Part shown: piece after piece, positions 7,592-25,194 of the stretch
How positions within the stretch are numbered: the first letter of the stretch is position 1
Layout of the letters: every line of letters starts with the position of its first letter
Origin: a virus
Taxonomy: Duplodnaviria > Caudoviricetes
Length of the DNA: 36,947 nt
IMG/VR virus record: IMGVR_UViG_3300012346_000313
Span: 1 to 36,947 of that record
Direction: 5' to 3' (one strand)
Made by a program: the position numbers and the translations under genes
Notes under the pieces: generated by a model
Databases searched by the model: none
What the model saw: only the letters and a program-made list of their open reading frames with translations
What the model was told of the DNA's origin: nothing

Positions 7592-8932
7592 ATGGCAGAC
7601 GAAGTAAAGAAACTCACGGGCGAAGATATTACAACCCCTGAGATGTTGGCAGCGGAAATAAACAAGGCTTTTGCCAAGTATAACAGCTTGCTAACAAAGA
7701 CAGCAACCAGTCAGGAAGTGCGGGATATCCAGGCTACACTGATTGTAGAAAACAAAGAGCTTTTAACGAAGATTCAAAGCACTGGCGAACAAATGGATTT
7801 GCAAAAGAAAGAAGTTGAGAAACTTATTGACACTATCACAATCCAGGGCGACACGATTACAAAGATGAAAACAGCTTTCAATCCACGTGAAGAAAGTAAA
7901 ACATTTGGTTCGCAAGTATCCGAATGCGTGGCAACAAAGGACTTTCAGGATTTCATAGCAGGTAAAACATCAAAAGCAAAGTTTCAGATCGAAACAAAAG
8001 ACGTTGCTTTTACAGGAACTTATGGAGCAGGAGCAGCCGTGCAACCTTACCTTGCATTTCAAGCACCTCAACAGCCACCAATTGAGGCTTTTGATATTCG
8101 GTTATTGTTACCTACGGGTACGATTGACAGCTCTTCGCTTCAATTTCCGCAGGAATATGACCCGACAAATGCAAACGCAAATGTGATGCACCACGAAGCA
8201 GAAAACGGGGCAGCAAACGAAAACACTTTACAGTTCACAATGGGAACCGCTTATGCAACCCGTATAGCAGCATTTATTGAAGTAAGCCGTTCAGCCTTGC
8301 AAAATACAGCATGGTTAAACCAGTACATCACCAACCGGATGATGAGGACTTTCATAGGTGAACTAAACCAGCAGTCAATTTGCGGAGGTGGAAGTGCAGC
8401 AGGTATGGCAGGCGACAACGCCCTGAAAGGTCTGGTTGATTTTGCCAACACTTTTGCAGGTACTGAATTTTCGGCAAAGATTGCCAATGCTAATTACTTT
8501 GATGTATTGAATTGTGCTAAAGGTGAAATGAACGGACTTTACAGCATAGTTGCAAATACTTATCTTGTGAATCCTTACACCGGCACAATCTTAACAAGTT
8601 CAAAGAATACCATTTCGGACTTTGTAAGCCCGGCTACTTTCTTACAGCCTAATAACGCTGGTTATTCAGGAGCATTTGGAATGCGTCAGTATGAGGCTTC
8701 TGATATTGTCGCAGGTGAATATCTTGTGGCTTCAATCAGTCCTTCATTTATGCAATTACTCTTTAACGGGCCTATTGAAATTATGGCAACCGATGCACAC
8801 GCTTCTAACTTCATTGCTGACTTGGTTACGATTAAACTTGAAGCAAAGGTTTTACTTCCTGTTTACAACGCCAATGCTTTGATGAAAGGAACTTTTGAAA
8901 CCGATTATAACACAATTCTAAAGGGCGCATAA
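7592..8932 (+). CDS. Major capsid protein (HK97 fold with coiled-coil delta domain)
   Basis: Follows the protease; N-terminal coiled coil; EAENG, IAAFIEVSRSALQN, SNFIADLVTIKLE. Confidence 0.9.
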   Translation: MADEVKKLTGEDITTPEMLAAEINKAFAKYNSLLTKTATSQEVRDIQATLIVENKELLTKIQSTGEQMDLQKKEVEKLIDTITIQGDTITKMKTAFNPREESKTFGSQVSECVATKDFQDFIAGKTSKAKFQIETKDVAFTGTYGAGAAVQPYLAFQAPQQPPIEAFDIRLLLPTGTIDSSSLQFPQEYDPTNANANVMHHEAENGAANENTLQFTMGTAYATRIAAFIEVSRSALQNTAWLNQYITNRMMRTFIGELNQQSICGGGSAAGMAGDNALKGLVDFANTFAGTEFSAKIANANYFDVLNCAKGEMNGLYSIVANTYLVNPYTGTILTSSKNTISDFVSPATFLQPNNAGYSGAFGMRQYEASDIVAGEYLVASISPSFMQLLFNGPIEIMATDAHASNFIADLVTIKLEAKVLLPVYNANALMKGTFETDYNTILKGA

Positions 8933-9372
8933 TGAAAAAGCTATTAATCTTTTTAGCGTTATTCGCCATTGGAGTGATGGCGCACGCACAGAGCGATTAC
9001 ACGTACCCGATGACAATTAGCGGAACAGCGAGAGGTACATTCTGGAACTATACAGATACCCTGACCGACGGCCAAACACTTGACGCACTCATCAGAATAA
9101 AGAGTTCAACCGTTATGGATTTGACTTTCCAGGTTGTGTTCGATGAACTTACAGGAGCATCAACGGGAACGCTTACAATCTTAGGTTCAAACGATGGAGT
9201 GGTTTATTCGGCTGCTTATGTAGATGAAACAATCACAGCCGCATTAACAGCCGACGGCTGTATTTGGGGAACTGTTGATGATTTTAATTGCAGCTACATT
9301 AAAGTATTAATGACAACATCAGGAACTGAAACAAGTACAATGAAATGCTATTACTCAATACGAGAAGAATAA
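8932..9372 (+). CDS. Signal-peptide beta-rich protein, paralog 1 (putative capsid decoration)
   Basis: MKKLLIFLALFAIGVMAHA|Q. Shares GSNDGVxY, DDFNxSYxKV and YSIRxE with the next gene. Confidence 0.7.
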   Translation: MKKLLIFLALFAIGVMAHAQSDYTYPMTISGTARGTFWNYTDTLTDGQTLDALIRIKSSTVMDLTFQVVFDELTGASTGTLTILGSNDGVVYSAAYVDETITAALTADGCIWGTVDDFNCSYIKVLMTTSGTETSTMKCYYSIREE

Positions 9373-9374
9373 AA

Positions 9375-9827
9375 ATGAAAAACATAATTTTAATATTAGC
9401 TTTTTTAGTGATCGGGATGATCGCAGGAGCGCAAACAGTATGGACGCAAGCCACCTATCAGATTGACGAAAGCGGCAAGTCTGGTGAACTATGGGGCACG
9501 GGAACCCATGACACTATTTTAACTTCGACAACCGGAACTCAATACATCTTTGTTTTGAGAGGCCCTAAACCTTTTGACCTGTCTTTTTATAACGTGATTA
9601 CAAAGGTTTCCGGGACGGTCACAGCCTCTTATATTGAGTGGATGGGATCGAATGACGGGGTTACTTATGTTCAGGTTGACAGCGTAAAACTTGGCGGGGA
9701 TGCAACGGCTACAAAATGGAAGAACATTGACGATTTTAACTACTCTTATTTAAAAGTTAAGGGTGTTGGTGTCGGTTCGTCCGGGCTATGCAAACTCAGT
9801 TCTTTTTATTCGATTAGAAAAGAGTAG
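9375..9827 (+). CDS. Signal-peptide beta-rich protein, paralog 2
   Basis: MKNIILILAFLVIGMIAGA|Q from ATG 9375; paralog of the preceding gene. Confidence 0.7.
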   Translation: MKNIILILAFLVIGMIAGAQTVWTQATYQIDESGKSGELWGTGTHDTILTSTTGTQYIFVLRGPKPFDLSFYNVITKVSGTVTASYIEWMGSNDGVTYVQVDSVKLGGDATATKWKNIDDFNYSYLKVKGVGVGSSGLCKLSSFYSIRKE

Positions 9828-9829
9828 CC

Positions 9830-10048
9830 ATGTTAGTCAAGATAACAGAACAGAGGGGTGAAACCGGCTTGCGTAAAGCCGGCACCCTTTATTTAGTCGG
9901 TGATGATCTTGGAAAAGTTTGGATTGAGAAAAAATGGGCTGTTGAGTTTAAAGAAGAAAAAGCCACTATCGAAACCAAAGAGGAAAAGTTCAAAGTCAAG
10001 ACTAAAGAAACCAAACGGAAACGGGTAACGAAAACAAAAGTTAAATGA
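9830..10048 (+). CDS. Small Lys-rich head-module protein
   Basis: 72 aa with a basic C-terminus; a position often seen after capsid genes. Confidence 0.6.
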   Translation: MLVKITEQRGETGLRKAGTLYLVGDDLGKVWIEKKWAVEFKEEKATIETKEEKFKVKTKETKRKRVTKTKVK

Positions 10049-10533
10049 GTTTACTGTATTTAAGCAAGGATTTATTTCAACAGCACGGCGGGAGTTTACA
10101 AATTGACTTTGGTAACTATGACGACTTCGACCACTTTGCCTATGAAATTGAAATGAAATACCTCACTAAATTATACGGCGTACTCTATCGACTAACGAGA
10201 ACCGTCGGGGGGTTATCCTGGAACGATGGGACTACTTATTATGAAGTTCACGGCGAAGAGGCAATGTTAATGGCGTTCTTTTATTTTCATTACATAACTG
10301 AATGCCAGGGGGCTAAAGTCCTTTCAGGAAGTCCAGAAGAGGCTTATATGAAAGCAGTAAACGGAACTAAGGAAATGATTAAATCTAACATTGTCAAAGC
10401 GTATAATCAGGGAGTTGATTATTTTAATGAAATAGTTGATTATATTGACTATATGAACTCACAAGACCCGACAGCATACCCGGATTTTGACACAGTAAAA
10501 ATGACAGAAAAATTAAATGTATTCGGAATTTAA
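10045..10533 (+). CDS. Putative head-tail connector
   Basis: Position and size only. Confidence 0.45.
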   Translation: MSLLYLSKDLFQQHGGSLQIDFGNYDDFDHFAYEIEMKYLTKLYGVLYRLTRTVGGLSWNDGTTYYEVHGEEAMLMAFFYFHYITECQGAKVLSGSPEEAYMKAVNGTKEMIKSNIVKAYNQGVDYFNEIVDYIDYMNSQDPTAYPDFDTVKMTEKLNVFGI

Positions 10534-10545
10534 AAACAAAAAGAA

Positions 10546-11460
10546 ATGAATATTTTAAATGGTTTAACCAACACGGGAGGGAATCCCAAAAACAGAGCCT
10601 TTGACTTTAAGCAACTGCGGAGGATTATTTTAGTTCCGAAGTACAACAGTTCAGAGGTTTTGAATACACTGGCTAATGTAGCGGGTGTAACTAAGGCGGC
10701 TTTGCAGGCCAAATTTGATGCAGCAAATATCAATAACCGTTATTTTCCTTTGCCACCGATGAAAAATGTTGAGTTTGTCAGGGGTGAATCCACTAAATAT
10801 GCCTGGGCTGATGATTCGGTCACTTACATAAAACAAGGGATAAAGACCTTTAAAGCTATGTTTGACGTTAGCGACGTTGGCCCGGCTTTGCTCAAAAGAC
10901 TACAAAGCTGGCGGGCTTGTGACTTTGGTATGTTCATAGGTGACACAGAAGGCAATTTCGGTTATATTCTTGACAGCGCAGGAGTGATTGTAAAACCTTT
11001 GGAGATCGAAGGGCAGTCTTTTGATGTTCGCATGATCGGAGCTACCGACAAGGAACCGGCAATGATGGAAGTAACTTTCAACCTGGCACCCGAAATAAAT
11101 GACGGAGATTTCAGGTACATTCCTAAAGCTGATCTGGATTTTGACATCAGGAGTGATTCAGATGTTTATGCTTTGTGGTCGGTTGTGCTTGCTGAGGTAT
11201 CAAATACCTTAACACATATACTTTTCACAGCAAAAACAGATTACGGCGTTCCGATTTCCGGGCTTGTCAAGACTGAGATTTATCTTTATGATAATACGGG
11301 TAGCGCTGCGATTACATTAACGAGCTTAACCGAAACGGGAACAACCGGAGCTTATGATGCTTTAATTCCTGCTCAAACAGAGAATGACAGCTATACAATG
11401 AACATTTTAAAATCGAAGTACGCACCGGAGGACACTTTATCAGGTACATTAACAGCTTAA
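10546..11460 (+). CDS. Major tail tube protein, possible C-terminal Ig-like domain
   Basis: 304 aa, beta-rich, upstream of the tape measure gene; Thr-rich C-terminal ~90 aa. Confidence 0.7.
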   Translation: MNILNGLTNTGGNPKNRAFDFKQLRRIILVPKYNSSEVLNTLANVAGVTKAALQAKFDAANINNRYFPLPPMKNVEFVRGESTKYAWADDSVTYIKQGIKTFKAMFDVSDVGPALLKRLQSWRACDFGMFIGDTEGNFGYILDSAGVIVKPLEIEGQSFDVRMIGATDKEPAMMEVTFNLAPEINDGDFRYIPKADLDFDIRSDSDVYALWSVVLAEVSNTLTHILFTAKTDYGVPISGLVKTEIYLYDNTGSAAITLTSLTETGTTGAYDALIPAQTENDSYTMNILKSKYAPEDTLSGTLTA

Positions 11461-11462
11461 TT

Positions 11463-11666
11463 ATGAAACTCGGAAACACGGATTTTAACGAAGAAGTGGT
11501 CAGTAAAATGACTTTTGAAGAGTTTGAAGCTACTTACAAAGGACTTTTACAGGGGCATGACCTCGAAGATGCTTGGCGACTTTTAGCTGGCGATGCCCCT
11601 GTTTTTTCAAAGAAAAAGAAGAGTGGGAAAGTTAGCAAACCTGACGAAGTCACTGGAGAAATTTGA
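11463..11666 (+). CDS. Small tail-module protein (possible assembly chaperone)
   Basis: Position directly after the tube gene. Confidence 0.5.
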   Translation: MKLGNTDFNEEVVSKMTFEEFEATYKGLLQGHDLEDAWRLLAGDAPVFSKKKKSGKVSKPDEVTGEI

Positions 11667-12111
11667 CCCGGATGCGGTTTTGAATAAGGTTTTAAAGATC
11701 AAAGAAGTTGATAACTACATTAAAACCTTAATTCAGGATCGGCTCTGGCAACTTGGCGAAGATGCAAAAGGCAAAAAGATACGGACTTATTCAGCAATCG
11801 AACAAGGCGAGCCTGTTTATTCCTATAATACTGTATTCGGTACTAAGAAGTACAAAGGGAAGAAAGCAAAAGGCCAACCGTCGGACCGGGTCACCTTAAA
11901 AGATACCGGAAAGTTTTACAAAAGCTGGCAGTTGCAACTTTTAAAAGAGTTGTTTTATGTTCAAAGCATAACGGATAAAGGGGACGGGGATATTGAGGAC
12001 AATGTAAGTTTAACAAACGTGATAACACTTTCGGATGATGAAAAAAAGTATTTGGTTGATAAGATTCGCCCGTTCTATATTCAGGAAACCCGAAAAGTTA
12101 TCGGCTTATAA
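11623..12111 (+). CDS. Tail/neck morphogenesis protein (GTG start inferred)
   Basis: DRVTLKDTGKFYKS resembles the LxDTG motif of neck/tail-completion proteins. Confidence 0.55.
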   Translation: MGKLANLTKSLEKFDPDAVLNKVLKIKEVDNYIKTLIQDRLWQLGEDAKGKKIRTYSAIEQGEPVYSYNTVFGTKKYKGKKAKGQPSDRVTLKDTGKFYKSWQLQLLKELFYVQSITDKGDGDIEDNVSLTNVITLSDDEKKYLVDKIRPFYIQETRKVIGL

Positions 12112-12694
12112 ATTTCACCGTAGCCTGGAAACGTTACCTATTTGGAACTGGCATCAACTTCATAAGCACAATGACGTTAAATACCTTTTACAGGTCAATG
12201 ACTTTGAAGGTATCGAATTAACCAAAGATTTCAAAAAGACTTTACAGGGCTTTGCCGATGAAATGGTTTACGAGTTTGATGATCTGAACTTGGGGCTTAT
12301 CATTGCACAAAGGGATTACAAGATAAAACTACTTGAACTTATTGCTGACATTGCAAAGAACTCAAAAGACCCTGAAAAGTTAGATTTAGCCTTTCATATT
12401 ATTATCAATTTAGCCGTTACGGAAGATCCTGATGTAAATTGGTTATGGGAACAGAGTTTTACCGATACAGCAAGCCAAAGGGCAATGCTAACAGAAGCCA
12501 GTATAGCGATAATGCGCTACAAAGACAAACGGCCAAAGGGTGAAGAGCAATCATTAATCGAAAAGGCTACACGGGTGGAGGTTATTTTAGGTATTCCACC
12601 TATTGATTTGATGGTTTGTCCGGTCCTTAAATTCAAAGAGTACGAGAAACAGGCTATTGAAAAGATCAATGCCAGAAATAAATCACTCCAGTAA
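12035..12694 (+). CDS. Tail-module protein (possible tape-measure chaperone)
   Basis: Helical ORF immediately before the tape measure gene. Confidence 0.55.
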   Translation: MMKKSIWLIRFARSIFRKPEKLSAYKFHRSLETLPIWNWHQLHKHNDVKYLLQVNDFEGIELTKDFKKTLQGFADEMVYEFDDLNLGLIIAQRDYKIKLLELIADIAKNSKDPEKLDLAFHIIINLAVTEDPDVNWLWEQSFTDTASQRAMLTEASIAIMRYKDKRPKGEEQSLIEKATRVEVILGIPPIDLMVCPVLKFKEYEKQAIEKINARNKSLQ

Positions 12695-14913
12695 TGGCAA
12701 AAGGTGAAAAAATATTACATAGTGACCTGATTCAGGAAGGCGACCCATTTACCAAAATGTACGGTTATATTGACGGTATAACTAATAAATTTGTAGAGGC
12801 GAAAACTAAAATGGGCGGCGGTTTAATGGGTGGTGGAAAAGATGTAAAAGAATACATTAACAATACCAATAAAACCATTAAGGCGGTATCAGAATTAACC
12901 GAAGCCGAAAAGAAAATATTAAACCTAAGAATAAAACTCAAAGAGGCTGCCAGTTCACAAGCGGATGAAATTGCACAATTAAATGTTTTAAACCTTAAAC
13001 AAGCTCAGATAAATAAGAATTTAGCCACTATTGCACTTTCTCAGGCTGGTAGTTATGAACGTTTAAATCTTGAATACAGGGAAAATTTACGGCGGGTAAA
13101 AGAAATGAAAGCCGTAACCGATACAGAAAAGGCGGCACGTGAAAAGTTAATTAACACAACCAAACAACAGAATAACGAGCTAAAAAAGCTGGATAAACAG
13201 ATGGGAAACCATCAAAGGGAGGTAGGAAACTATAAATTAGCTTTACAGGGACTTGGAAACCAATTTGGGATTGTCGGGCAGGCAATGTCCCAGATGGGTA
13301 ATATAATTCAGATAGTAAAGAATGGATTTACTACATTAAAAGGTATAATGCTATCAACCGGAATCGGTGCGCTTGTGTTGGCAATCGGTTCAATGGCAGC
13401 ATATTTTAAAGAGGCCGGTGATAATGTATTATTGTTTAATTCCAGTTTGCAAAAGAGTAAAGCAATATGGAATACAGCAAGGGAAACGCTCGAAGGTATT
13501 GGTAAAGGGCTTTGGGATATTGTAACCGGAGGTCAGGCAGGATTAATAAGCGGGAGCGCAGAAATTGCAAAAACGATTAAGAATACAACAGCCGAATATG
13601 GCAAACAATATGATGTTCAGAAAGCACTTGCACAGCTTCAAAATGAATATAATAAACAACATATTGAAAACCTGACTAAAATAGCTGATTTAGAAACTAA
13701 AAGTTCAGAGGCTCAATTATTTGCTACTGAAAAGACAACAGAAACAGCAGCGGCAAGGCTCGAAGCTCAAACCAATGCAAAGAAATATACAGAGCAAATT
13801 TATGAGTTAAAAAAAGCCGAACAACAATTAACAGTCGCAATAGCGAATCAAAAATATATACAAGACCCACAAAATAAAACACTTAAAGCATTAGAAGAAG
13901 AAAAAAGAAATTTTATATTATTATCAAAAGAAGAAGCGGATTCATTAAAGGCGTTAAACAGGAGATATAATTCATTAACAGAGGAATTAAAAACACAGGG
14001 AGCGGAATATGAAAAGTTAAGACTTGAAAAAGAAGCGGCAGCGGCAAGGGATATTCCCATAACGAAAATGGAAACTGCCGACGCTGAAATTAAAATAGAC
14101 ACCGATTTAAAACAAGCACTTACAAGGAACAGCCAGGATTATTATGATCATATAAAACAACAGGATAAAGAGGCATATCAGGATTTCATTAACTCAGAAG
14201 AGGCCAAACGTCAGGCAATCCAAGACACTATAAACCTTGCTCAGGATGCCGGCAACATGATCTTTTCCATGAACCAGAACTCCATCAATGCTGAGATGGC
14301 AGACGCTGAAAGGTTAAGGGATTATCAGGTTGACATGGCGGGTGATAGCGTAAAGAAAAAGGCAAAAGCAGAAGCTGATTACAATAAGAAAATGAAGCAG
14401 TTGAAAACAGAACAGGCGAAGAATGATAAGAACGCAGCTATTTTCAACGCAACTATCAACTTAGCTCAGGCGATTGTAAGGTGCTTTTCAGATACCGGCC
14501 CGATAGGAGGTTTAATAACATCGGTTTTAGTTGCTGCAGTGGCAGGTTTTCAGTTAGCCTCTATAATTGCAACTCCTATTCCTAAGTTTAGGAAAGGAAC
14601 CGAAAGGCTGCAATCAGGATTAATGCGGGGCGAAGACAGCGACGGTTTTATAATTGAAGGACATAAGAACGAACGAATCTTAACAGCCGAGCAAAACAAG
14701 CCTTTGTTGGCACTTGGAATAGGAAATTCAGAACTTCCCGGGCTGGCTTACATAGGTAAAAAAATGGAAATGGAATATCCTTATTTAGCAATGATCGCAA
14801 ACCAGCAACTTGGCGAGCAAAAGGAAACAAACCGGATTTTAAAGAAATATAAATTTGTTGACAGGGATGGAAATATAGTAACTCTGGAGGGTAACGTGAT
14901 AAGATATGTATAG
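12694..14913 (+). CDS. Tape measure protein
   Basis: 739 aa Ala/Lys/Glu coiled coil; REVGNY, STGIGALVLAIG; C-terminal hydrophobic patch and PKFRKG...NERIL. Confidence 0.88.
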   Translation: MAKGEKILHSDLIQEGDPFTKMYGYIDGITNKFVEAKTKMGGGLMGGGKDVKEYINNTNKTIKAVSELTEAEKKILNLRIKLKEAASSQADEIAQLNVLNLKQAQINKNLATIALSQAGSYERLNLEYRENLRRVKEMKAVTDTEKAAREKLINTTKQQNNELKKLDKQMGNHQREVGNYKLALQGLGNQFGIVGQAMSQMGNIIQIVKNGFTTLKGIMLSTGIGALVLAIGSMAAYFKEAGDNVLLFNSSLQKSKAIWNTARETLEGIGKGLWDIVTGGQAGLISGSAEIAKTIKNTTAEYGKQYDVQKALAQLQNEYNKQHIENLTKIADLETKSSEAQLFATEKTTETAAARLEAQTNAKKYTEQIYELKKAEQQLTVAIANQKYIQDPQNKTLKALEEEKRNFILLSKEEADSLKALNRRYNSLTEELKTQGAEYEKLRLEKEAAAARDIPITKMETADAEIKIDTDLKQALTRNSQDYYDHIKQQDKEAYQDFINSEEAKRQAIQDTINLAQDAGNMIFSMNQNSINAEMADAERLRDYQVDMAGDSVKKKAKAEADYNKKMKQLKTEQAKNDKNAAIFNATINLAQAIVRCFSDTGPIGGLITSVLVAAVAGFQLASIIATPIPKFRKGTERLQSGLMRGEDSDGFIIEGHKNERILTAEQNKPLLALGIGNSELPGLAYIGKKMEMEYPYLAMIANQQLGEQKETNRILKKYKFVDRDGNIVTLEGNVIRYV

Positions 14914-16690
14914 TTTTGAGATTGACATAGGTGACTGGGGAACACCCGTAGCAGGTTCAGGGTACATTGAATGTAATCCTCTGTTCTCAAAGTGTGCTAT
15001 CCGCAGAAGTAACGAGGATTCGTTTCTGAGGGTACGGGATTACGTCGACGGGGAGTTAATGTTTTTAGGTTCGGAATATACAGCTTTAAAAACCCTTTTC
15101 GATTCTGATATAATTGTTTTGGGAATAAAGATTTATAAAGATGCTTTTCCTGCACCTGAATTGATTTTCACAGGCGAGTTAAATCTTTACGGAACCTGGC
15201 AAACGGATCAGAAAAGCTGCTCTTTGAAAGTTGAAACTGTTGACGCTTATAATAAGATACTGGCAGGGTTGGATTTGGAAAGATACGGAACGGAAACAGG
15301 AGGCATTGAGCATGACTACGATACTTGGGTTGATTTACAATGTTCAGCTTTTGATGACGGCACAGCACCGGGTTGGACTTTTGAAACACCTGAAAATTAT
15401 GGCATAGGGTCAACAGATTTCAATGATGTACCGTTATACGATGCAGGAGTAACTTATAGACTGGCAACGGCGAACGCTTACGGCAGGCATGATGGCGTTT
15501 TAGCTGATTGCTTTTGCAGAACAGTAGAAGGCGAATTTGGAGAAACTGTTAAAATTTGGACACCTGTAAATGATTTTACTTTTGACGTTGACCCGTTGAC
15601 TTATCCTTTGCAATGGCAGTTACTTGATATTGATATAGGAGTTGAAATATACGCACAAGAAAGAAGCTCGTTTCGCTGGGATCACGGGGACGACTGGACA
15701 ATGGAAGATGGGCTAAGCCTTTGGGATGAAGATGGGAAATATTGGTATTTAGAAACAACTTCATTAACAGGTAGTTCTTATACTAAAATATTTAACAGAT
15801 TAGTAAAGATTTACGATTTTATTCACGATACACTGGCAATTATTGACCCAACAATTAACATAGCAGAAACGGGTGAACATGGGTATTTTAGTTATTTTGA
15901 AGATACTTACATTAACAAATTCTATCTTTATGTTAAGTACGGCGACCCAGAAACATTAAGCAGTATTTTTGGAATATTCAAATTTTTGGGTTGTGACTGG
16001 TATTTGGATTCGAGTAATTATTTCCGCTTCGTTCACCGTTCGGAAATTGCAAAGACAGTCCCGTTAAAAGCGACTTATCCGCAATACCACCTTAACGATT
16101 ATCTTAGTAAAAACTGGACTACTTTCGACCTTAAATGTGCGGTTGATAAAGTAAAGGCTGAAACATGGGATATGGAAGCCCCTGACGAACAATATGCTAT
16201 TATTGACGGGAACAATACAGAGATAAATCAGGATTTCCGGCAACAAAAGATTGATTATAATAACCATTTTGAAACGGTTCGTAATAACAAATTGAGTTAT
16301 AATATTGACGTTCGGGAGTGGGATATTGCCGGCATGGGATCGGGTGGAAAATTCCTGATGGCAGCCGGTTCGGATAATTATTTATTCAATCAATTAGGAG
16401 TTATTAATACAAGTACAGTGCTTTTAAATGGTGGATTGGCTTGTTCAGTAATAGTATTTAATCATTTATTGCATTATAACCGTCCATTTGGTGCGGGAAC
16501 TTATTTAACAGTTTTACATTCAGATATTGAAAGAGTGAAAAAAATAGAAAATCAGGTACAGGTTCCTATTTTTGATCAGAGATTATACGATTTTAACAAC
16601 CTTGTGAGGACTGATTTAATGGACGGTGAATTGAAAAGTGTATCGGTAAAACTTGACGGTAGCGGAGCAGAAATAACATTATTAACATGA
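14906..16690 (+). CDS. Tail-tip/hub protein
   Basis: 594-aa acidic, aromatic-rich protein directly after the tape measure gene. Confidence 0.6.
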   Translation: MYSFEIDIGDWGTPVAGSGYIECNPLFSKCAIRRSNEDSFLRVRDYVDGELMFLGSEYTALKTLFDSDIIVLGIKIYKDAFPAPELIFTGELNLYGTWQTDQKSCSLKVETVDAYNKILAGLDLERYGTETGGIEHDYDTWVDLQCSAFDDGTAPGWTFETPENYGIGSTDFNDVPLYDAGVTYRLATANAYGRHDGVLADCFCRTVEGEFGETVKIWTPVNDFTFDVDPLTYPLQWQLLDIDIGVEIYAQERSSFRWDHGDDWTMEDGLSLWDEDGKYWYLETTSLTGSSYTKIFNRLVKIYDFIHDTLAIIDPTINIAETGEHGYFSYFEDTYINKFYLYVKYGDPETLSSIFGIFKFLGCDWYLDSSNYFRFVHRSEIAKTVPLKATYPQYHLNDYLSKNWTTFDLKCAVDKVKAETWDMEAPDEQYAIIDGNNTEINQDFRQQKIDYNNHFETVRNNKLSYNIDVREWDIAGMGSGGKFLMAAGSDNYLFNQLGVINTSTVLLNGGLACSVIVFNHLLHYNRPFGAGTYLTVLHSDIERVKKIENQVQVPIFDQRLYDFNNLVRTDLMDGELKSVSVKLDGSGAEITLLT

Positions 16691-17142
16691 GTAGTTTAAG
16701 AATATTCCGGGAAGGTGGATTGCATGACGCTGAAAAATCAGGGTACTTTAAGAACATAGTAACAGGATGCCCGATTGCGCCAGGTGTAGAGCTTTACCCT
16801 TTCTTTTTTACTATTATGCCTATCGGGATTCCTTGTATTCCTTTGACGGCTTTTAAATTAGAAGGTATCGGCGCAGGTGGCGAAGTGGTTGTCACTTATT
16901 CACTGGATACTGATTTAATTTCGATAACCTCAAACGGGACAAATTACATAGCTGAATACGATGCTACAACCGATGTATTGACGCCTTTAGGGAGTTATTC
17001 AAATGGAGTGTACCGTTATAAGATTGAATTTGGGACAACGATATTTTATAGTGAATATTATATAGTAAATTCACAACGCTATATTTCAGTGATCGGAGTT
17101 GGTGACTTTGACCTTGATGATTTTGACGAAGATTTTTATTGA
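16687..17142 (+). CDS. Tail-tip protein
   Basis: Coupled ORF in the tail operon; acidic C-terminus GDFDLDDFDEDFY. Confidence 0.55.
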   Translation: MSSLRIFREGGLHDAEKSGYFKNIVTGCPIAPGVELYPFFFTIMPIGIPCIPLTAFKLEGIGAGGEVVVTYSLDTDLISITSNGTNYIAEYDATTDVLTPLGSYSNGVYRYKIEFGTTIFYSEYYIVNSQRYISVIGVGDFDLDDFDEDFY

Positions 17143-18008
17143 TTATGATTGAAAAACAGGAATATATTTTAATTTCATTTCGGGACATAACAGGCGTTTA
17201 CCCGAAAAACTTTACCGATAAAATCTATATCGAAAAGCGACCTATTAAAGTGGGTTTGCATACTGATATGATTTTAACGGATGGCAAGTTTAGAACCGTT
17301 TATGATGATAACTGGGAAGAGCGGATAGTTCAGGCGACGGCTTACAATAAGTATAAAATCGAATTTATCAAAAATGAAAACTATAATGCTGAAATGCTTC
17401 AATTTGCAGATCAGATCAGGATTTATACTTTCGATGATAAGATTTTACACTATGGTAAAATTTTAGATGTTCAGGTAACTCAGGTAGGGAGTTCAGCATT
17501 TCAGGTAATAACTATCGAGTATTACGATAAGAACCCGGCAAACTATTATAATTCATATCCTGTTATTAATCATTTGCGGAGTGATTCACTGATTACAAGA
17601 TACCAGGATTCAGAGCTAACAAAAGTAAGTTTGACACCTTTAAACCATGATTCATGGGTTACTACTTATACTTTTTATTCAGCTTTCTACATGACCAAGT
17701 TCAACACAAGCGACAATAAACAGGAACACGAGCTTAACGGAGAGTTAATAAATACCCGGCTTACAATAAAAAGAAAGCGTGAAATTATTCTTTATTTAAA
17801 TGAGGAGGACGCTTACACGGTTGGTTATTATGGTTTACTTTGTAATTCATACACCGGAAGGATTGATATTCAAGAACCTGGCGAAGGTATTCCTATGATG
17901 TCTGAGCTGGCAGATGTAGAAATAGAACAAATTAAGGGGGTGGACCTGTATAAATGCACTATCAAAATAACAAATTCAGTTATAAATAATTTAACTTATT
18001 CAACATGA
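17139..18008 (+). CDS. Tail-tip protein
   Basis: Coupled beta-rich ORF in the tail operon. Confidence 0.55.
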   Translation: MIMIEKQEYILISFRDITGVYPKNFTDKIYIEKRPIKVGLHTDMILTDGKFRTVYDDNWEERIVQATAYNKYKIEFIKNENYNAEMLQFADQIRIYTFDDKILHYGKILDVQVTQVGSSAFQVITIEYYDKNPANYYNSYPVINHLRSDSLITRYQDSELTKVSLTPLNHDSWVTTYTFYSAFYMTKFNTSDNKQEHELNGELINTRLTIKRKREIILYLNEEDAYTVGYYGLLCNSYTGRIDIQEPGEGIPMMSELADVEIEQIKGVDLYKCTIKITNSVINNLTYST

Positions 18009-18385
18009 GTACAATTCCTGATTTTATTACTTGGATAAATACGAACATAAATACCAACGGCATTCGTGGAATTACAGGAGCTTTATTAAATACTGCTTTC
18101 ATTAATTTGATTGCTTTTGTGCGGGCTGAAAAGAGAACAGATAAAGGGATTGAGGTAATTGAAAGTGCAAGCAATGTGATTACTTTTTGCAACCGTTCAG
18201 ATGCAGCTGACCCGTTTCCAAATGACACTACTTACGGGTTAATTTTAAGATGTTACGATGCTGATGGAAACAATATTGACTATACTGTTTTTGATATGAC
18301 TGTTGACGGGTTTAAGATCACACCGGCAGCGGATGGATTTATAGATTATTTAGCTACTGAAAAAGTTCAAACGATACCAGAATGA
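18005..18385 (+). CDS. Tail fibre adaptor-like protein
   Basis: INTNINTNGIRGITGALLN N-terminus; lies just before the large fibre genes. Confidence 0.5.
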   Translation: MSTIPDFITWINTNINTNGIRGITGALLNTAFINLIAFVRAEKRTDKGIEVIESASNVITFCNRSDAADPFPNDTTYGLILRCYDADGNNIDYTVFDMTVDGFKITPAADGFIDYLATEKVQTIPE

Positions 18386-21144
18386 AAAGACTAATTTTAA
18401 TTTTATTATTGATTCCGCCTTTTGTTTTTAGCCAGACAACTACGTTTAAAAACATAAAAGCCGATACCATAAAAGCAAAAGGCACCAGGCTATATATGGA
18501 AGATACGACAGTATTCGGAACTCGTACACTGACCGGAAAACAGATTTTAAATGTTGACGGGGCTGTTAAAATAGGAGCGAGCGCAAAAATGACACCCGGA
18601 ACAATACAATATAAAAGCGGTTATTTTTGGGGGTATGGTTTATCGGATTCAACTCGTTTGGATTCACTTGGCGGAGCAAGTAGTTATCTTCGCAACGTAA
18701 AAGACTACGGAGCCACAGGCGACGGATCAACAGATGATTCCGATGCTATTCAGGCTTGCTTTGATGTAGGTAGTGGATATATTACAATAGGTGAAAGCAT
18801 TGCAGACACTTTTATTTTGAATAAATCTATTGAATATACAGGCGACAACTTGACTATCGAAATAAATGGAGTTGTTAAAATGATTCAATCCGATACCGTA
18901 TTGTTAAAAGCAGATGTTGATAGCTTAGATATGCGGGTTGTGGTAGCCAATGCAGGTAATTACTTTGAGGTAGGTCAACGTATTTCTGTATCTGATGACA
19001 ATATGGAGGAGGAGGCTTTAGGCAATGAAACAGAGGCAAGTTTTACTTATCGAAGAGCTGACCCTGCTAAGATTACAGCTATTGATACCGATACTATATT
19101 TTTAAACGATACCTTAAAGCATGATCTAAAGGTTGTGGACAATGCGATAATAGGATTAACACAACCTAACTTCATAATTAAGGGTAGAAATATTTCATTT
19201 TGCGGCAATGGTGTAGTTGATAACAACTGGAATGATAGCAGTTTTATGGTTTATCCTGTCAGGGTTCCAACAGATTTGGGGGACGGGGTTTTAACAAATT
19301 GTGTTATTTTCGGAAATAGGAATGATGAAACCTACTACGGCAATATATCATTTAGAGATTTGACATTTCAAAATGGTCATGTCGGGGGTATTTATATGTA
19401 CTATCCTGATACTGTTTCTTTCGATAATGTTAAATTTAACAATCACCTTGAAAAAGCGACATCATTCAGGTATGGGTTACATTTAAAATTCAATAATTGT
19501 ACATTTGATAATGTTCGCTATAATGACGGAATTGGACTTTATCTTGGTTGTGATAATACAGTAATTGACGGATGCAGGTTTACAGATTGTAACCGATCAG
19601 GAGTTAATGTTAATGCAACAGCCGACAGTGTAATAGTAAGAAATTCAGAGTTTATTGATTGCGGTAGAAGTGTGTGGGTTGTTGGTACGGCAGTAGATAG
19701 ACCTCACATGACACGAATGGAAAATTTAAGAGTAACCAATGTAAGGCAATTCATTGATAACGGCAGAAGTTATGGAATTTACTTATACTACGCAAACGAA
19801 GCAGTTGTTGATAATGTAATAGTTACAGGTAATACAGTAGCAGAGGGTGGTATTTTAATAGCCGGGCATAGTGAAAACATTACTATCAGAAATTCAACTA
19901 TTAGGGATTTTAACTATGTTTCCAATGGAGTTGGTATTTATATTCTTAATGTGACAACAGATGTACCTGATTCTATAAGGATTGAAAACACCCAAATTTT
20001 AAATAATAGATTACCTTTTAATGTAGCTACGGCAACTAATATCGAAGTAATTAATTGCGGATTCGATGGAAATACATTTGCACCCGATGGCAATTCAGAG
20101 ATAAACTATACAGGAAGCACAGGACTTGCAAACACTCCATTTGTTACAGATTCAACCGGAACGGTAACGCTCCCGGCAGTAGATTACGGAGTTTTTAATT
20201 ATGCTTCATTTGATTATATAGTTTTAAATCCGCAAGCAAGCCCGCCACCAGCCGCAAAAGGAACGATGTACACTAATAGCAATGGACTTCTTTTTCATCA
20301 TAACGGGCTGTATTATGACACACTAAGCCGTGATTTAAGCGACCCGTTTATGAGTGACGAAATGTGGGCTATCTATTCAGAATTTGACACCCGCCCAACC
20401 TATGAGGCTTCGTGGGGTATGGATACGCTACTTTATACTTTAGATACTGCGGGAATATGGGGACGGTTAGATTGCTTTTATCTTTTTGCAAACGCTTCAA
20501 GTGCAAACGCTATTGTGAACTGGAAAGACCCAACCGGAACAGATGCGACACTTTCAGCAACACCACCTACATTTACAGCTTATAAAGGATTTCAGGGTAA
20601 TGGCAATTCGAGTGCGGTTGGTACAATGTATATAAATACAAACTTTAATCCTAATACAGCAACACATTACCAAAAAGATAGTTGTGCGATTGGTATTGCT
20701 ATACAGACTAATTTAACTCAGGCTGTTTCAGGAAACTGTTTTGGATGTACAGATTCAACAGCATGGGTGCGGCTTATAAACAGAAACACAAGCAACCAGA
20801 CAACAGCGTCATGTAATAGCACAAACAACGCTCAGGTAGTTAGCAGTATAACTGATGGAGCAGGTTATTTTTCATTTGCGAGGATAGCAACGGCGACTTA
20901 CTACATTTACAATGACAAGTCTTCAACTACGGCGACAAGGAATAGTGTCGCTGACCCCAACGCTAATTTATATTTGTTGGCATTTAATACAGATGGACCA
21001 GCTTCAGCCGCCGCAACTACGCTTTATGATTCCGACCAGATAAGTTGTTTTTGGGCGGGAAGTTACATGAGTGCTGCACAAATTACGATAATAGTTGATG
21101 CGATTGAAAGATATTTAGATGCTGTTGGTTATGGACTTTTATAA
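18382..21144 (+). CDS. Tailspike-like right-handed beta-helix protein with Sec signal peptide and probable C-terminal lectin-like domain
   Basis: MKRLILILLLIPPFVFS|Q; NVKDYGATGDGSTDDSDAIQ (Pectate_lyase_3-like cap); Asn/Gly/Ile beta-helix repeats. Confidence 0.8.
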   Translation: MKRLILILLLIPPFVFSQTTTFKNIKADTIKAKGTRLYMEDTTVFGTRTLTGKQILNVDGAVKIGASAKMTPGTIQYKSGYFWGYGLSDSTRLDSLGGASSYLRNVKDYGATGDGSTDDSDAIQACFDVGSGYITIGESIADTFILNKSIEYTGDNLTIEINGVVKMIQSDTVLLKADVDSLDMRVVVANAGNYFEVGQRISVSDDNMEEEALGNETEASFTYRRADPAKITAIDTDTIFLNDTLKHDLKVVDNAIIGLTQPNFIIKGRNISFCGNGVVDNNWNDSSFMVYPVRVPTDLGDGVLTNCVIFGNRNDETYYGNISFRDLTFQNGHVGGIYMYYPDTVSFDNVKFNNHLEKATSFRYGLHLKFNNCTFDNVRYNDGIGLYLGCDNTVIDGCRFTDCNRSGVNVNATADSVIVRNSEFIDCGRSVWVVGTAVDRPHMTRMENLRVTNVRQFIDNGRSYGIYLYYANEAVVDNVIVTGNTVAEGGILIAGHSENITIRNSTIRDFNYVSNGVGIYILNVTTDVPDSIRIENTQILNNRLPFNVATATNIEVINCGFDGNTFAPDGNSEINYTGSTGLANTPFVTDSTGTVTLPAVDYGVFNYASFDYIVLNPQASPPPAAKGTMYTNSNGLLFHHNGLYYDTLSRDLSDPFMSDEMWAIYSEFDTRPTYEASWGMDTLLYTLDTAGIWGRLDCFYLFANASSANAIVNWKDPTGTDATLSATPPTFTAYKGFQGNGNSSAVGTMYINTNFNPNTATHYQKDSCAIGIAIQTNLTQAVSGNCFGCTDSTAWVRLINRNTSNQTTASCNSTNNAQVVSSITDGAGYFSFARIATATYYIYNDKSSTTATRNSVADPNANLYLLAFNTDGPASAAATTLYDSDQISCFWAGSYMSAAQITIIVDAIERYLDAVGYGLL

Positions 21145-21153
21145 TTATAAACT

Positions 21154-23355
21154 ATGAAAAAAACAATATTATTTTTATTTTTAGCCATGTCGCTTGTTTC
21201 ATATTCACAAACAAGAGGGCATTTCACTAAGGGATTAAATATAGAAGGTGGTAAGACATTTTTAAATGATGATGTATATATTGATAGTGCATTAATGGTA
21301 GGACAATCCATAACATCAGCTTTCATAATTGCTACAGAAGGACTTAGTAAGGGTGGCGATAGTTTACCAGAGTTTGCGGATACACTTAACAAGTTAGCGA
21401 CAAAATATGATGTGGCAAATCAATTAGTTGTTTCTGTCTTCTTTCCAACTACATTAACGGTTGCAACGGGAACGTTAGAGGCGGGTGTGGTAGGTGATCT
21501 CAATAACCTATATAATGATTCGATAACAATAGAGGAAGCATCTGGAGCAGACCCACTACGATTTACTTTAACATTTACAGATGTTGGTGATTTTGACAAG
21601 ATCGTGTTTTATGGTAAATATAGTGGAACAGCATCACATACCATTGCTATTGAAATGTATAATTATACACTGACAAGGTTTGATACTCTTTATACTATTA
21701 CAGATCAAGGATTAATGACGTGGACTGGTGTACCCGTATTTGATCCCAATAGTTATGTTAGCGCTGGTACTGCCGTGATTAAGTTTAAGCATAATCAATC
21801 TGGTAATACCTCTCACCATTATTATTTGGATTATATTTATTTAAGTAAGGGTGGAGCTGTATCTGGTGGTGCATCTGTACATAGTGGATTAGGTGGTGTG
21901 TTGGGTAGTGGTGAATATCATTTATCCGAAGCCGAGCAGATAGTTGCAACACAGGCAGCTACAACATCTTTAGATGGATACTTGACTGATACGGATTGGG
22001 ATACGTTTAATAATAAAGAAAATGCGCTTACATTTACAAGTCCTATAAATAGAGCTACGAATACTATTTCTTTGACTGGATTAACGGGATTTGGTACGTC
22101 GGGTCAGGTTATTGCTACCAATGCCACAACAAATGGTTTGGAATGGAAAGATGCGGGAGGTACGGCAGCAGATATAAGTGTTACAGATGAGTCCGGAGAA
22201 TTAGCCAGCTTTCCATTATTTGTAACAGCAGCAACAGGTGCTTTGGACGTTAAAACAAATGCAGGTTTAACATTTTTTCCAGCAACATCTAATCTTGGAG
22301 CAACTTTATTTACCGCAAATACAGCTTTTATTCCAGATGCTAATAATGGTGCAACATTGGGTGTAGCCGCTACTGGTGAATTTTCAGATATATTTATAGC
22401 TGATGGTGCTGTTATTAACTGGAATAATGGAGATGCCCTGCTTTATCAGGATAATGACACATTGTATGTATATGGTGCTGATTTCGATATTGGAGTAGGT
22501 AGTTTAAAAACAACAGGGTCTATTGCGTCAACTACGGATAGGGTGTTAAAGGGGTGGTTTACGGATATTGAGAGTACGAATTTACCCACAGTTAATGGTG
22601 GGTCATTAAAAACTGCGCTGGGCTTAACCGCTACCGATGTCGGGCTTGGTAATGTAACTAATGAATCAAAGGCGACTATGTTTACATCGCCAACATTTAC
22701 GGGTACTCCGGTATTGGGAGCTGCCACAGGAACAAGTCTTGATGTTAGTGGTGTATTGGAATCTGGTGCAAATAGTGGCACAAATGGACAGCTTAAATTA
22801 TATGGCTCAACCAGTGGCGATGTGACCATTAAGGCAGCAGCAGCGGCAGGTACGGCAACAGTGTTTCAATTACCAGCTACCAATGGATCAAATACAAATG
22901 TTTTACAGACCGATGGCACAGGAGTTACGTCATGGGTTGCTGCTGGCACTGTTGCGGAAAAGAGTTATGCCCTTACATTTGGTGCTTCAAGCCAATCAAC
23001 CACAACTGATGCTCAAACAATGTATTGGGGTAACATGCTTGTTGCACCATCGACAACAGCAAACCGCTGGCGGATTTATATTCCAAAAACAGGAACTATA
23101 AAAGCCTGTTATATTTATTCTTATGCGGGTACGGCAGGAACAAGTGAAAACTGGTCAATGTATATCAGAGTAAATAATACAACAGATAATTTAGTTCAAA
23201 CTTTGGGAGCAGCGACTAGTGACAGGATTTGGAGTAGTACGGGCTTGAGCATTGCAGTCACAGCTGGTAATTATATTGAAATTAAAGAAGTTCAACCAAC
23301 ATGGGCTACTAACCCGGCGACGGTAACAAGAAACGGAGTAATTTATATCGAATGA
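21154..23355 (+). CDS. Tail fibre-like protein with Sec signal peptide
   Basis: MKKTILFLFLAMSLVSYS|Q; Thr/Gly-rich; fibre motifs DVGLGNVTN, SPTFTGTP, VLQTDGTGVTSW. Confidence 0.78.
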   Translation: MKKTILFLFLAMSLVSYSQTRGHFTKGLNIEGGKTFLNDDVYIDSALMVGQSITSAFIIATEGLSKGGDSLPEFADTLNKLATKYDVANQLVVSVFFPTTLTVATGTLEAGVVGDLNNLYNDSITIEEASGADPLRFTLTFTDVGDFDKIVFYGKYSGTASHTIAIEMYNYTLTRFDTLYTITDQGLMTWTGVPVFDPNSYVSAGTAVIKFKHNQSGNTSHHYYLDYIYLSKGGAVSGGASVHSGLGGVLGSGEYHLSEAEQIVATQAATTSLDGYLTDTDWDTFNNKENALTFTSPINRATNTISLTGLTGFGTSGQVIATNATTNGLEWKDAGGTAADISVTDESGELASFPLFVTAATGALDVKTNAGLTFFPATSNLGATLFTANTAFIPDANNGATLGVAATGEFSDIFIADGAVINWNNGDALLYQDNDTLYVYGADFDIGVGSLKTTGSIASTTDRVLKGWFTDIESTNLPTVNGGSLKTALGLTATDVGLGNVTNESKATMFTSPTFTGTPVLGAATGTSLDVSGVLESGANSGTNGQLKLYGSTSGDVTIKAAAAAGTATVFQLPATNGSNTNVLQTDGTGVTSWVAAGTVAEKSYALTFGASSQSTTTDAQTMYWGNMLVAPSTTANRWRIYIPKTGTIKACYIYSYAGTAGTSENWSMYIRVNNTTDNLVQTLGAATSDRIWSSTGLSIAVTAGNYIEIKEVQPTWATNPATVTRNGVIYIE

Positions 23356-24143
23356 AAGAGATAGCGATTGTTTTAGGTTTAGGATTCCTTTTCACAGGAG
23401 CGTGGAAATGGGGTGAATCGAAATGGATAAGGATTTTTCAAGTTCTTCAGCTTTACAAACAAAAGGTTGATTCTTCATTTAGTAAAGAGATAGCCGAAAA
23501 GTACAATTATCAATATCATGAAGCGGTAATGGCACGAAAGAGCCGGCATAAGATGACCGGATTTATGATTGCTTTATTTGCTGTTTTTAGTTATTCATTT
23601 TTGGGTTTGACATGGACGGGCTTTTGGTGCTTTCTAATCAACTGGACGTTGTTTTGGGTAGGTGACATCCTTTTGAATGTTTTCATCAAGCAGAAGGCTT
23701 TATATCGAGGCACAACAGCAATCATGGATAAGATACCTTTTTTGGTTCGGTTTGTTTTGATTTTGGTATTCATTGCCGGGTTGGTTTTCCTTTCAGGTTG
23801 TTCAGTACCTACGGAAAATAAAATACCTATTGATGAATTAAAAAGTACGTCGGCAATGGAATCAAATTTCTTTTTATTTCGGATTCCTGCCAGTGACCCT
23901 GAAAACGATGTTTTGAAATACCAGATAATTTCACAGCCTTACAGGGGTATGTTTACGGTTAATTCAGTGGGTGATTTTATGATTTCACAGCGCGGATTAA
24001 ATCAACTTAAAGATATTGTTCGTAAAAAAATAGAAGTCATTGTTGAGGTAAGTGATGGCAAACTATCAACAAGAGGGAAATTTGTTTTCGAGGTTGAAAA
24101 GTCGCCGGACGGCAAACACTATTTAAAAACAGGAATAGTTTGA
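23352..24143 (+). CDS. Multi-pass membrane protein with C-terminal cadherin/Ig-like domain
   Basis: Several TM segments, internal LVFLSG-C lipobox-like motif, then ASDPENDVLKYQII...VEVSDG. Confidence 0.6.
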   Translation: MKEIAIVLGLGFLFTGAWKWGESKWIRIFQVLQLYKQKVDSSFSKEIAEKYNYQYHEAVMARKSRHKMTGFMIALFAVFSYSFLGLTWTGFWCFLINWTLFWVGDILLNVFIKQKALYRGTTAIMDKIPFLVRFVLILVFIAGLVFLSGCSVPTENKIPIDELKSTSAMESNFFLFRIPASDPENDVLKYQIISQPYRGMFTVNSVGDFMISQRGLNQLKDIVRKKIEVIVEVSDGKLSTRGKFVFEVEKSPDGKHYLKTGIV

Positions 24144-24286
24144 ATAAAAAGTTTACACCGGATGAGGTAAAAATGATTTTTAGATTTTTAAAAGAAGGTA
24201 AAACATACAGGCAATTAGCCTGGATATTTGACCGGCAGGAAGACACAATCAGGGCAAAGATTAAAACGTTAAAAACAGTTGGATAA
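24140..24286 (+). CDS. Small HTH protein (48 aa, not in ORF track)
   Basis: TTG start overlapping the previous stop; FTPDEVKMIFRFLKEGKTYRQLAWIFDRQEDTIRAKI. Confidence 0.55.
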   Translation: MNKKFTPDEVKMIFRFLKEGKTYRQLAWIFDRQEDTIRAKIKTLKTVG

Positions 24287-24518
24287 AAGATTTTCGATAA
24301 TAGGGTTTGGTATTACGGGCACGTTATTCATTGCAACGGTTATCGGGTGGGCTTATGATTCCGGTAGGAAAAGCAGCCGGATTGATTCACTTAAAAGCGA
24401 GATCGAAGTTTTGAAAAAAGATAATTGCGACGTGAAGGAATTTATTAAACAACAATCAGAATTAAATGGTAAAATGTTTTTTGTTATTGATAAGCTTAGT
24501 TTTCATTTATCCGATTGA
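24279..24518 (+). CDS. Single-TM coiled-coil protein
   Basis: N-terminal TM followed by heptad-like segment. Confidence 0.55.
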   Translation: MDKRFSIIGFGITGTLFIATVIGWAYDSGRKSSRIDSLKSEIEVLKKDNCDVKEFIKQQSELNGKMFFVIDKLSFHLSD

Positions 24519-24636
24519 TCAGGATACAACGAAAACGGATACTTTGAAGCTGAAAAAGTTTAACATTTATCAGGTGGAATTGAATTATAAAATGGATTCA
24601 TTAATATTGAAATTAGACACTTTAAAAACGAAATGA
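24466..24636 (+). CDS. Small exported/membrane peptide (56 aa, not in ORF track)
   Basis: MVKCFLLLISLVFIYPIDQDTTKTDTLK... fills the gap up to ATG 24638. Confidence 0.45.
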   Translation: MVKCFLLLISLVFIYPIDQDTTKTDTLKLKKFNIYQVELNYKMDSLILKLDTLKTK

Positions 24637-24637
24637 A

Positions 24638-24967
24638 ATGAAAAAAGCTAAAGACATTTTTATGTATGCACTTGGTGCAATCGTAGTGATCGGAGTTTTG
24701 TCACTTATTACATTGGTTATCCTTTACCGTCCTGAAATGAATGACGTGATTAATATTTCCGTTGGTGCGCTGTTGGCTGCCTTTGGTTCGGTAGTGGGTT
24801 ACTTTTACGGGAGTTCAAAAGGTTCAAGTGACAAAAACCAGCTACTTTTGGGAGCTGCTCCGCCTGTGTACGGATGTATGAACAAAGGGGCTTTGAATTA
24901 CAACCCGGACGCAACTATGGACGACGGAAGTTGTATTTTTGCAGCCGAGCCAAAACCAGGTGGATGA
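24638..24967 (+). CDS. Holin-like 2-TM protein with C-terminal GCxxxxAxNYNPxAxxDDGSC motif
   Basis: Two TMs; VVGYFYGSSKGSSDKN; YGCMNKGALNYNPDATMDDGSC. Confidence 0.6.
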   Translation: MKKAKDIFMYALGAIVVIGVLSLITLVILYRPEMNDVINISVGALLAAFGSVVGYFYGSSKGSSDKNQLLLGAAPPVYGCMNKGALNYNPDATMDDGSCIFAAEPKPGG

Positions 24968-25191
24968 TGGCAGAGGTTGACTGGAAAAAGTACGTTGATA
25001 TGCGGTTTTGTGAGCTGCAAAAGAGGATAGATATAACTTTTAACTCACACGAAAAAGCATTGATCTTGGCTGCTCAGGAGGAGGTTGATAAGCGGATAGC
25101 ACGGCAGCGTTCTAATTTGATTGTGGTAGGGTTTGTGATTGCAATGGTTGCTGGTATTTTAGGCGGAATTGTCGGACATATACTAAAATAA
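24964..25191 (+). CDS. Small protein with C-terminal TM
   Basis: ATG 24964 overlaps the upstream stop; hydrophobic C-terminus. Confidence 0.55.
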   Translation: MMAEVDWKKYVDMRFCELQKRIDITFNSHEKALILAAQEEVDKRIARQRSNLIVVGFVIAMVAGILGGIVGHILK

Positions 25192-25194
25192 TTA

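Follow-up and report, generated by a model that had tools for sequence, protein, structure and literature searches.

The virus record IMGVR_UViG_3300012346_000313, analysed here over its full length of 36,947 nt (the window), represents the whole genome of an HK97-type siphophage, with 55 nt common to both ends and nearly all genes on the + strand; IMG/VR classes the record as having direct terminal repeats, and the CheckV completeness estimate is only 50%. Four of its late genes, two following the major capsid gene and two following the tail genes, encode proteins that begin with a leader of the Sec/signal peptidase I (SPI) type followed by glutamine. The presence of export signals on two capsid neighbours, a tailspike-type protein and a likely fibre suggests that outer parts of the particle are made in the periplasm. 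The four genes are:

8932-9372, + strand: Sec/SPI-type leader of residues 1-19 (8932..8988), site AHA followed by Q20
9375-9827, + strand: leader 9375-9431, site AGA followed by Q20
18382-21144, + strand: leader 18382-18432, site VFS followed by Q18; predicted exported tailspike-type protein, with a beta-helix (PF13229, E 2.3e-23) and a match to PHROG 2234, tail spike (E 4.3e-6)
21154-23355, + strand: leader 21154-21207, site SYS followed by Q19; predicted exported 733-aa protein, likely a fibre, by the leader filter described below and by matching annotated tail fibres over short stretches (E 1e-6 and 4e-2)

The initial annotation described four open reading frames (ORFs) with a basic start, a hydrophobic core, a small-residue site and Gln, in post-capsid and tailspike/fibre positions, and all of them are present on the + strand at the coordinates it gave. 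The first base of 8932 is the last base of the capsid gene's stop codon, the start of 18382 overlaps the stop of the short gene 18005 in an ATGA, and 21154 begins 9 nt past 18382. The start of 9375 has homologue support; a longer start proposed by the ORF caller, at 9345, would overlap 8932. Because the junctions are tight and homologues share the start Met, an artefact of start-codon choice was ruled out.

Leaders were recognised with a rule-based filter of our own, not SignalP, drawn up after the four had been seen. SPI leaders with Gln were found in 4 of the 52 genes and lipoprotein-like leaders in two more, 3478 and 26525; the filter passed 8 of 104,000 residue-shuffled proteins (0.004 expected per genome) and none of 7,350 internal windows. 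The anatomy of the Bacteroidota Q-rule, a basic n-region ahead of a hydrophobic h-region and then a small residue (-1) and Gln (+1), is seen by this filter in 4/4 proteins. None of them has a lipobox, and none matched a type IX C-terminal sorting domain in Pfam or NCBIfam at E<=0.01, a search that divergent signals could escape. With neither signal found, the proteins would stay periplasmic until lysis, which weakens the alternative, offered in the initial annotation, of secreted depolymerases. No Pfam, PHROG or NCBIfam family was matched at E<=0.01 by 8932, 9375 or 21154; among the four, family support exists for 18382 only, and 'decoration' and 'fibre' are labels taken from gene position.

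The capsid-adjacent jelly-roll family

The products of 8932 and 9375 are paralogous (30% identity, E 1e-16; 9375 by family hidden Markov model (HMM), E 2.6e-48). The AlphaFold (AF2) model of 8932, with a mean pLDDT of 88.7, has an all-beta jelly-roll mature part behind a leader helix. The initial search yielded 35 proteins, the query among them, and a family profile search 366 clusters (50% identity) at E<=0.001, of which the best 150 were listed; leader counts rest on the 183 proteins listed besides the query. The filter for leader and Gln passed 156 of the 183, while 3 had a leader without Gln and 24 failed, most of these failures being, by eye, short gene calls with a leader end still visible. 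Among these listed hits leader and Gln are kept down to ~25% identity. As the leader lay inside the search profile, leader-bearing hits were favoured; rescoring with a mature-only model kept the top matches and weakened the lowest ones. The only leaderless full-length matches (L089-L091) are the weakest and stand in other gene contexts. These three lie in other structural regions of phages, a hint that a leader may have joined a cytoplasmic virion domain.

The conservation of the leader bears on two alternatives to export with cleavage. In the first, the leaders would escape cleavage and serve as anchors, holding particles to the inner membrane during or after their assembly until the cell lyses; hydrophobic N-termini could act in this way, and membrane-associated assembly is known for some phages. 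This is very improbable indeed, as positions -1 (a small residue) and +1 (Gln) are conserved, with A19 and Q20 nearly invariant and other leader letters variable in the 35-row alignment and Q20 invariant in a 97-row alignment whose rows were chosen from leader-bearing hits; the basic N-terminus, moreover, implies that the mature part faces the periplasm. In the second, highly improbable as well, translation from an inner Met (Met16 in both 8932 and 9375) or failed export would give a cytoplasmic virion form, the leader serving an exported isoform. A Met does lie inside the leader in 28 of 30 close homologues, mostly 5 residues before the Gln, but in only 60 of 129 distant ones; 18382 and its relative P0205 have none between residue 1 and the mature domain, and the motif enrichment of 18382 described below fits periplasmic passage.

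The mature-only HMM matched 75 loci besides the window's own two, 8 of them with too little upstream DNA. An ORF of at least 340 aa ends no more than 500 nt upstream of the family gene at 65 of the 67 testable loci (49 of 51 distinct proteins); at L091, which is among these 65, the upstream gene is fibre-like and not capsid. Fifteen upstream ORFs were scanned, of which 10 passed the Pfam capsid cut-off; two of the 5 without a match bear a capsid or virion-protein annotation in the database. The post-capsid position is thus fixed across unrelated head modules. This argues against the proposal that the four proteins are exported without ever being stoichiometric parts of the virion, and instead mask receptors, block superinfection, act as decoys or degrade capsule in the periplasm or after lysis, which we regard as unlikely. 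In its favour, the jelly-roll has similarity to carbohydrate-binding modules, and also to PliG, a lysozyme inhibitor of the periplasm (Z 9.2). At several loci (L048-L066, L070-L074) two jelly-rolls are fused in tandem (~255 aa, one leader) or encoded by adjacent genes like 8932 and 9375, which suggests that there are two sites for binding or that a heteromer forms.

A cultured member of the family was reached through the protein P0058, which matches gp7 of phage Pan5 (ON968456, L094), a protein labelled cement and encoded directly 3' of the capsid gene. An hhalign comparison of 8932 with gp7 gave full-length matches at 95.4% with a close alignment and 99.7% with a wide one; the mature-only HMM matches gp7 at E 1e-32, and its leader is followed by Gln21. 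Full-length homology, leader with Gln and post-capsid position thus all hold for 8932 and 9375 in the family of Pan5 gp7, the core genes of Pan5 being distant from those of the window. Hence 8932 is likely to encode an exported jelly-roll protein, a candidate capsid cement or decoration, and 9375 a second such protein, its tandem paralogue. Two further Pan5 genes 3' of the tail genes, gp18 and gp19, have a leader with Gln by eye, and gene 76 of OP947161 resembles Pan5 gp7 in being a post-capsid Q-rule gene. That phage is named a Rhodobacteraceae phage. Pan5 is described as a cyanophage and has three Q-rule leaders, enriched Bacteroidota glycosylation motifs and a mixed host culture, 70.1% Pseudanabaena by 16S reads (PMC9837993); its true host may be a Bacteroidota companion in that culture.

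Several observations weigh against a cement role. The accessible description of Pan5 has no mention of a leader and derives the cement label from cryo-EM or AlphaFold without specifying which (PMC9837993), and the label may be a mere AlphaFold-based guess, a lead and not proof. Structural look-alikes of the 8932 model are generic, the best VIA matches being collagen-binding and protease domains (Z 10.5), followed by XepA (Z 10.1, rmsd 2.9, 106 aligned) and the microvirus spike G (Z 8.9); among viral models and Atlas clusters its closest neighbours are uncharacterised phage proteins, and the top VIA and Foldseek rows hold no known cement protein, 3j4u not being among those listed. That entry is Bbp16 (PF21190) of Bordetella phage BPP-1, a small capsid-surface protein whose match to the 8932 family is not significant: the profile gives E 0.12 over a GSxDG...Y stretch, and PF21190 is matched by 2 of 97 family members (best E 0.0012), a link no better than that to F5/8-type carbohydrate-binding modules, matched by 17 of 97. 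The BPP-1 cement is leaderless and cytoplasmic. Apart from these points, Pan5 gp7 has no solved relative by sequence, and no direct match to cultured phages came from tblastn with mature 8932, with the tube gene or with P0134.

Tail proteins with export signals and their counterparts

The product of 18382 consists of the leader, Gln18, an N-terminal domain (residues 18-98), a right-handed beta-helix and a C-terminal domain. Its only full-length relative among 7,990 scored candidates, P0205, for which no contig was found, has the same type of leader; the two are identical at 77 of 81 positions in residues 18-98 and 39% identical over a 684-column alignment, with a diverged helix and unrelated, unaligned C-termini. 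A conserved N-terminal domain with a diverged remainder would be the pattern of a particle-binding domain, seen here in one homologue only, and recent recombination would give the same pattern. Near-invariance of this domain nonetheless argues against a non-virion role. Leaderless proteins (YapH) of Flavobacterium phage elemo share the C-terminal domain, so that in this one comparison it appears swappable and the modularity tailspike-like. The beta-helix and, on the one comparison available, the conserved N-domain and variable C-terminal domain recall tailspikes of the P22 gp9 type, which fold in the cytoplasm without a leader.

The likely fibre 21154 gave less: a single-sequence fold of its last 136 aa reached pLDDT 53 with no Foldseek match at E<=0.001, and residues 19-140 have no relatives among 301 candidates. 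The window has no recognised long fibre gene without a leader, a further point against a non-virion role for its leader-bearing proteins. Between the tail tip and 18382 stands one short gene:

18005..18385, + strand: short leaderless protein, placed by position

This protein is a candidate adaptor between the tail tip and the exported spike. It has no relatives in viral contigs, and its Atlas look-alike, a viral H-type-lectin-like domain (TM 0.59), falls below the bar for naming. The related contig L041 has a leaderless 516-aa protein at the matching position, which favours the non-virion reading in that a leaderless appendage exists in kin; since blastp gave no significant match between it and 18005, an anchor motif shared by the two is only an impression. 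In the relatives G001 and G003, 3 and 4 genes with leader and Gln lie between the tail tip and the lysis block, and in G002 there is one before the contig end.

Virion data come from four cultured Cellulophaga phages (phi39:1, phi18:3, phi18:1 and phi46:1), in which 87 late-region genes were tabulated. Five of the 87 pass the filter (phi18:3 gp85-87, phi39:1 gp26 and gp32), and four of these five (phi18:3 gp85-87 and phi39:1 gp26) carry GenBank notes of virion detection by tandem mass spectrometry (MS/MS), which speaks against a non-virion role. A sixth protein, phi39:1 gp25, has leader and Gln by eye and an MS note, and fails the filter on one Glu. On the other side, phi39:1 gp32 has leader and Gln without an MS note. 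This gene (L046:21711-21995) and phi18:3 gp95 (L027:11085-11453), which also has no MS note, are small leader-and-Gln genes behind spanin-like genes in the lysis blocks, and are possibly soluble spanin partners. The regions phi39:1 gp24-gp26 (KC821626) and phi18:3 gp85-87 (KC821620) encode, as the window does, proteins with leader and Gln, here with notes of MS detection in virions and with a pectate-lyase type among them, and in phi39:1, an HK97-head siphophage, the 107-aa leaderless gp24 precedes gp25-26 as 18005 precedes 18382. By blastp, 18005 and gp24 have no sequence homology, and phi39:1 and the window none at E<=1e-4; phi18:3 is a podophage, and both differ from the window in that no post-capsid jelly-roll was seen and the glycosylation motif is depleted. 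Two points count against this comparison: phi18:1 and phi46:1 have no SPI-and-Gln gene among those tabulated, and the MS notes could reflect co-purification.

In Bacteroidota, O-glycosylation occurs at the motif D-(S/T)-(A/I/L/V/M/T) and needs export (PMC8550257). Counted against 1000 composition shuffles, the motif D-(S/T)-(A/L/V/I/M/T) occurs 25 times in the four mature window proteins, where 11.3 are expected (0/1000 shuffles), 18382 alone having 16 against 5.0. Counts in the window's 12 leaderless structural proteins (13 vs 11.8) and 19 other proteins (5 vs 7.0) are near expectation. Enrichment recurs in 8 fibres of relatives (47 vs 22.8, 0/1000; their leaderless structural proteins, 12 vs 18.2) and in the 3 Pan5 leader proteins (20 vs 5.4, 0/1000; other Pan5 comparison set, 15 vs 11.4); 7 leaderless fibres have 17 vs 13.1. 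In 128 distant jelly-rolls, which are related sequences and so not independent, 298 motifs were found against 91.6 expected, with at least one in 126/128. E- and N-control motifs were not enriched in the window, relatives' fibre and Pan5 sets. Export and motif together predict O-glycosylation of the four proteins, the enrichment being significant for 18382 and the pooled set only.

This prediction is tempered by several results. Singly, 8932 (1 vs 1.3) shows no enrichment and neither 9375 (2 vs 0.7, 148/1000) nor 21154 (6 vs 4.3, 259/1000) reaches significance, so the window total is driven by 18382. The reversed motif is mildly raised in the relatives' fibres (33 vs 22.8, 16/1000), and the motif is depleted in the leader proteins of phi39:1 (1 vs 5.6) and phi18:3 (3 vs 9.7). 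In addition, the test was chosen after the motif had been noticed, and enrichment was measured without a host-secretome control. Gain and avoidance of the motif might both be expected of proteins that meet a periplasmic enzyme.

A proposed periplasmic assembly route

It is probable that the four products are exported, matured in the periplasm of a Bacteroidota host and, as proposed here, docked at lysis. The leaders of these late-operon genes would route the products through Sec; SPI would cleave them, and the host glutaminyl cyclase, which faces the periplasm, would cyclise the exposed Gln (PMC5837995). The mature proteins would remain soluble in the periplasm and be decorated by the host's export-dependent O-glycosylation (PMC8550257), a likely reason for the detour. 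Meanwhile the core particle would be built in the cytoplasm as usual, its structural genes (portal, capsid, tube, tape measure and tip) all being leaderless. Once the inner membrane has been opened by a holin-type breach, or else in the lysate, 8932 and 9375 would dock as cement or decoration on expanded capsids, with the capsid protein as their likely partner, 18382 would dock through its conserved N-terminal domain, possibly on the leaderless 18005, and 21154 would be a fibre. Late attachment is feasible, since several decoration proteins and tailspikes, such as the P22 tailspike, T4 Hoc and Soc and lambda gpD, are able to attach to finished particles in vitro.

The claim of the initial annotation that the proteins are exported by Sec with a Q-rule N-terminus is strongly backed, both by leader conservation and by the independent periplasmic-modification motif; its claim of a virion role is backed only indirectly, by where the genes lie, by the tailspike anatomy, by the cement label of a cultured family member and by the MS-annotated analogues. 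The trait is real and conserved, and is probably a new form of tailed-phage assembly. Certain points count against this reading: virion membership, cleavage and glycosylation of the four are predictions, the Bacteroidota host is deduced from the Q-rule leaders only, and the sole genome match, a relative of the capsid gene (L029), is a 1.2-kb contig in a Clostridia metagenome-assembled genome (MAG). This contig is probably mis-binned there. A search for prophages in 185,579 genomes gave none informative on the host, and by tblastn there is no close relative of this long-tailed phage among cultured phages. As a tentative extension, which we consider quite possible, many tailed phages of Bacteroidota may have a two-compartment particle, with cement, tailspike and fibres that are periplasmic, pyroglutamate-capped and O-glycosylated, wearing host glycan.

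Tailed-phage particles are generally taken to be built wholly in the cytoplasm. Among other phages, the coat proteins of M13 are made with Sec leaders that SPI cleaves; those proteins remain in the inner membrane and are assembled as the particle is extruded, whereas the mature parts encoded here have no anchor and the phage is tailed and of HK97 type. The leader with Gln and the D-(S/T)-hydrophobic motifs are common to Bacteroidota Q-rule and O-glycosylation substrates (PMC5837995, PMC8550257), which, together with Porphyromonas gingivalis prophage genes, are envelope proteins or of unknown function, unlike the virion parts proposed here. The five Q-rule genes of those prophages, of unknown function, were read as envelope modifiers (PMC10367356), a precedent that favours a non-virion role. 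Signal peptides in two Bacteroides phages have been noted and left unassigned (PMC5723332), and a signal peptide has been taken in annotation as the sign of a non-virion gene (PMC6199706); the accessible text of PMC10172136 lacks the word 'signal', and those of PMC6199706 and PMC8143477 hold nothing on virion leaders. A description of Sec-exported virion parts in tailed phages was not found in this literature search; subscription papers, figures or supplements could hold one. What is added here is a cultured phage in the capsid-adjacent family and a possible explanation of why the proteins would be exported. If the proposed route is true, assembly ends with a step linked to lysis, and host modifications (pyroglutamate, O-glycans and disulphides) become available to receptor-binding and surface proteins, with effects on particle stability, host range and recognition; the use of signal peptides as a mark of non-virion genes would also be corrected. 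Cultured systems in which the route can be tested already exist in phi39:1, phi18:3 and Pan5.

Other genes of the window

The remaining recognised features are as follows:

4085: terminase, recognised by Pfam/PHROGs
5617: portal, recognised by Pfam/PHROGs
6929: prohead protease, recognised by Pfam/PHROGs
7592..8932, + strand: HK97-type major capsid protein, leaderless (PF05065, E 7e-9; tblastn matches to HK97-like capsids)
11593: tail protein, recognised by Pfam/PHROGs
12694: tape measure, recognised by Pfam/PHROGs
14906..18008, + strand: three leaderless genes 3' of the tape measure (594, 151 and ~288 aa), likely tail tip by position and syntenic homologues in L041
23352..27157, + strand: membrane-protein block in lysis position, with small transmembrane (TM) proteins, a holin-like gene (24638) and a spanin-like gene (26525), labelled by anatomy only

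The three tail-tip candidates had no match in Pfam, PHROG or NCBIfam searches, and a scan for promoters and terminators was uninformative, the sigma-70 consensus used being unsuited to this host group. No endolysin was recognised by Pfam, PHROGs or sequence in 23352-27157 or the whole genome, and tblastn with eight proteins from the endolysin position in relatives and in cultured phages gave no match below E 0.02. In our reading, G001 and G003 have endolysin-like genes in their lysis blocks, so that the leader trait coexists with ordinary lysis. The genome may have no endolysin, one that escaped recognition, or a missing piece, given the CheckV estimate. The ORF at 23352-24143 has several TM segments, followed by an internal leader of lipoprotein type (possible start near 23724, lipobox Cys150) and a small beta domain; it may represent a fusion or contain a nested lipoprotein gene.

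In the capsid protein, residues 136-137 are an invariant Lys-Asp behind a coiled N-terminal segment in 8 aligned capsid proteins, and are likely to be the delta-domain cleavage site. Directly 5' of the terminase genes, 1902-3741 holds a methyltransferase-like gene (1902), a GT4 glycosyltransferase (2546) and the lipoprotein-like gene 3478 (Cys17); the glycosyltransferase could modify surface glycans of host or phage. Finally, at 29970-32239 a DNA methyltransferase-like gene with an extra N-terminal domain adjoins a radical SAM gene, a possible DNA modification module.

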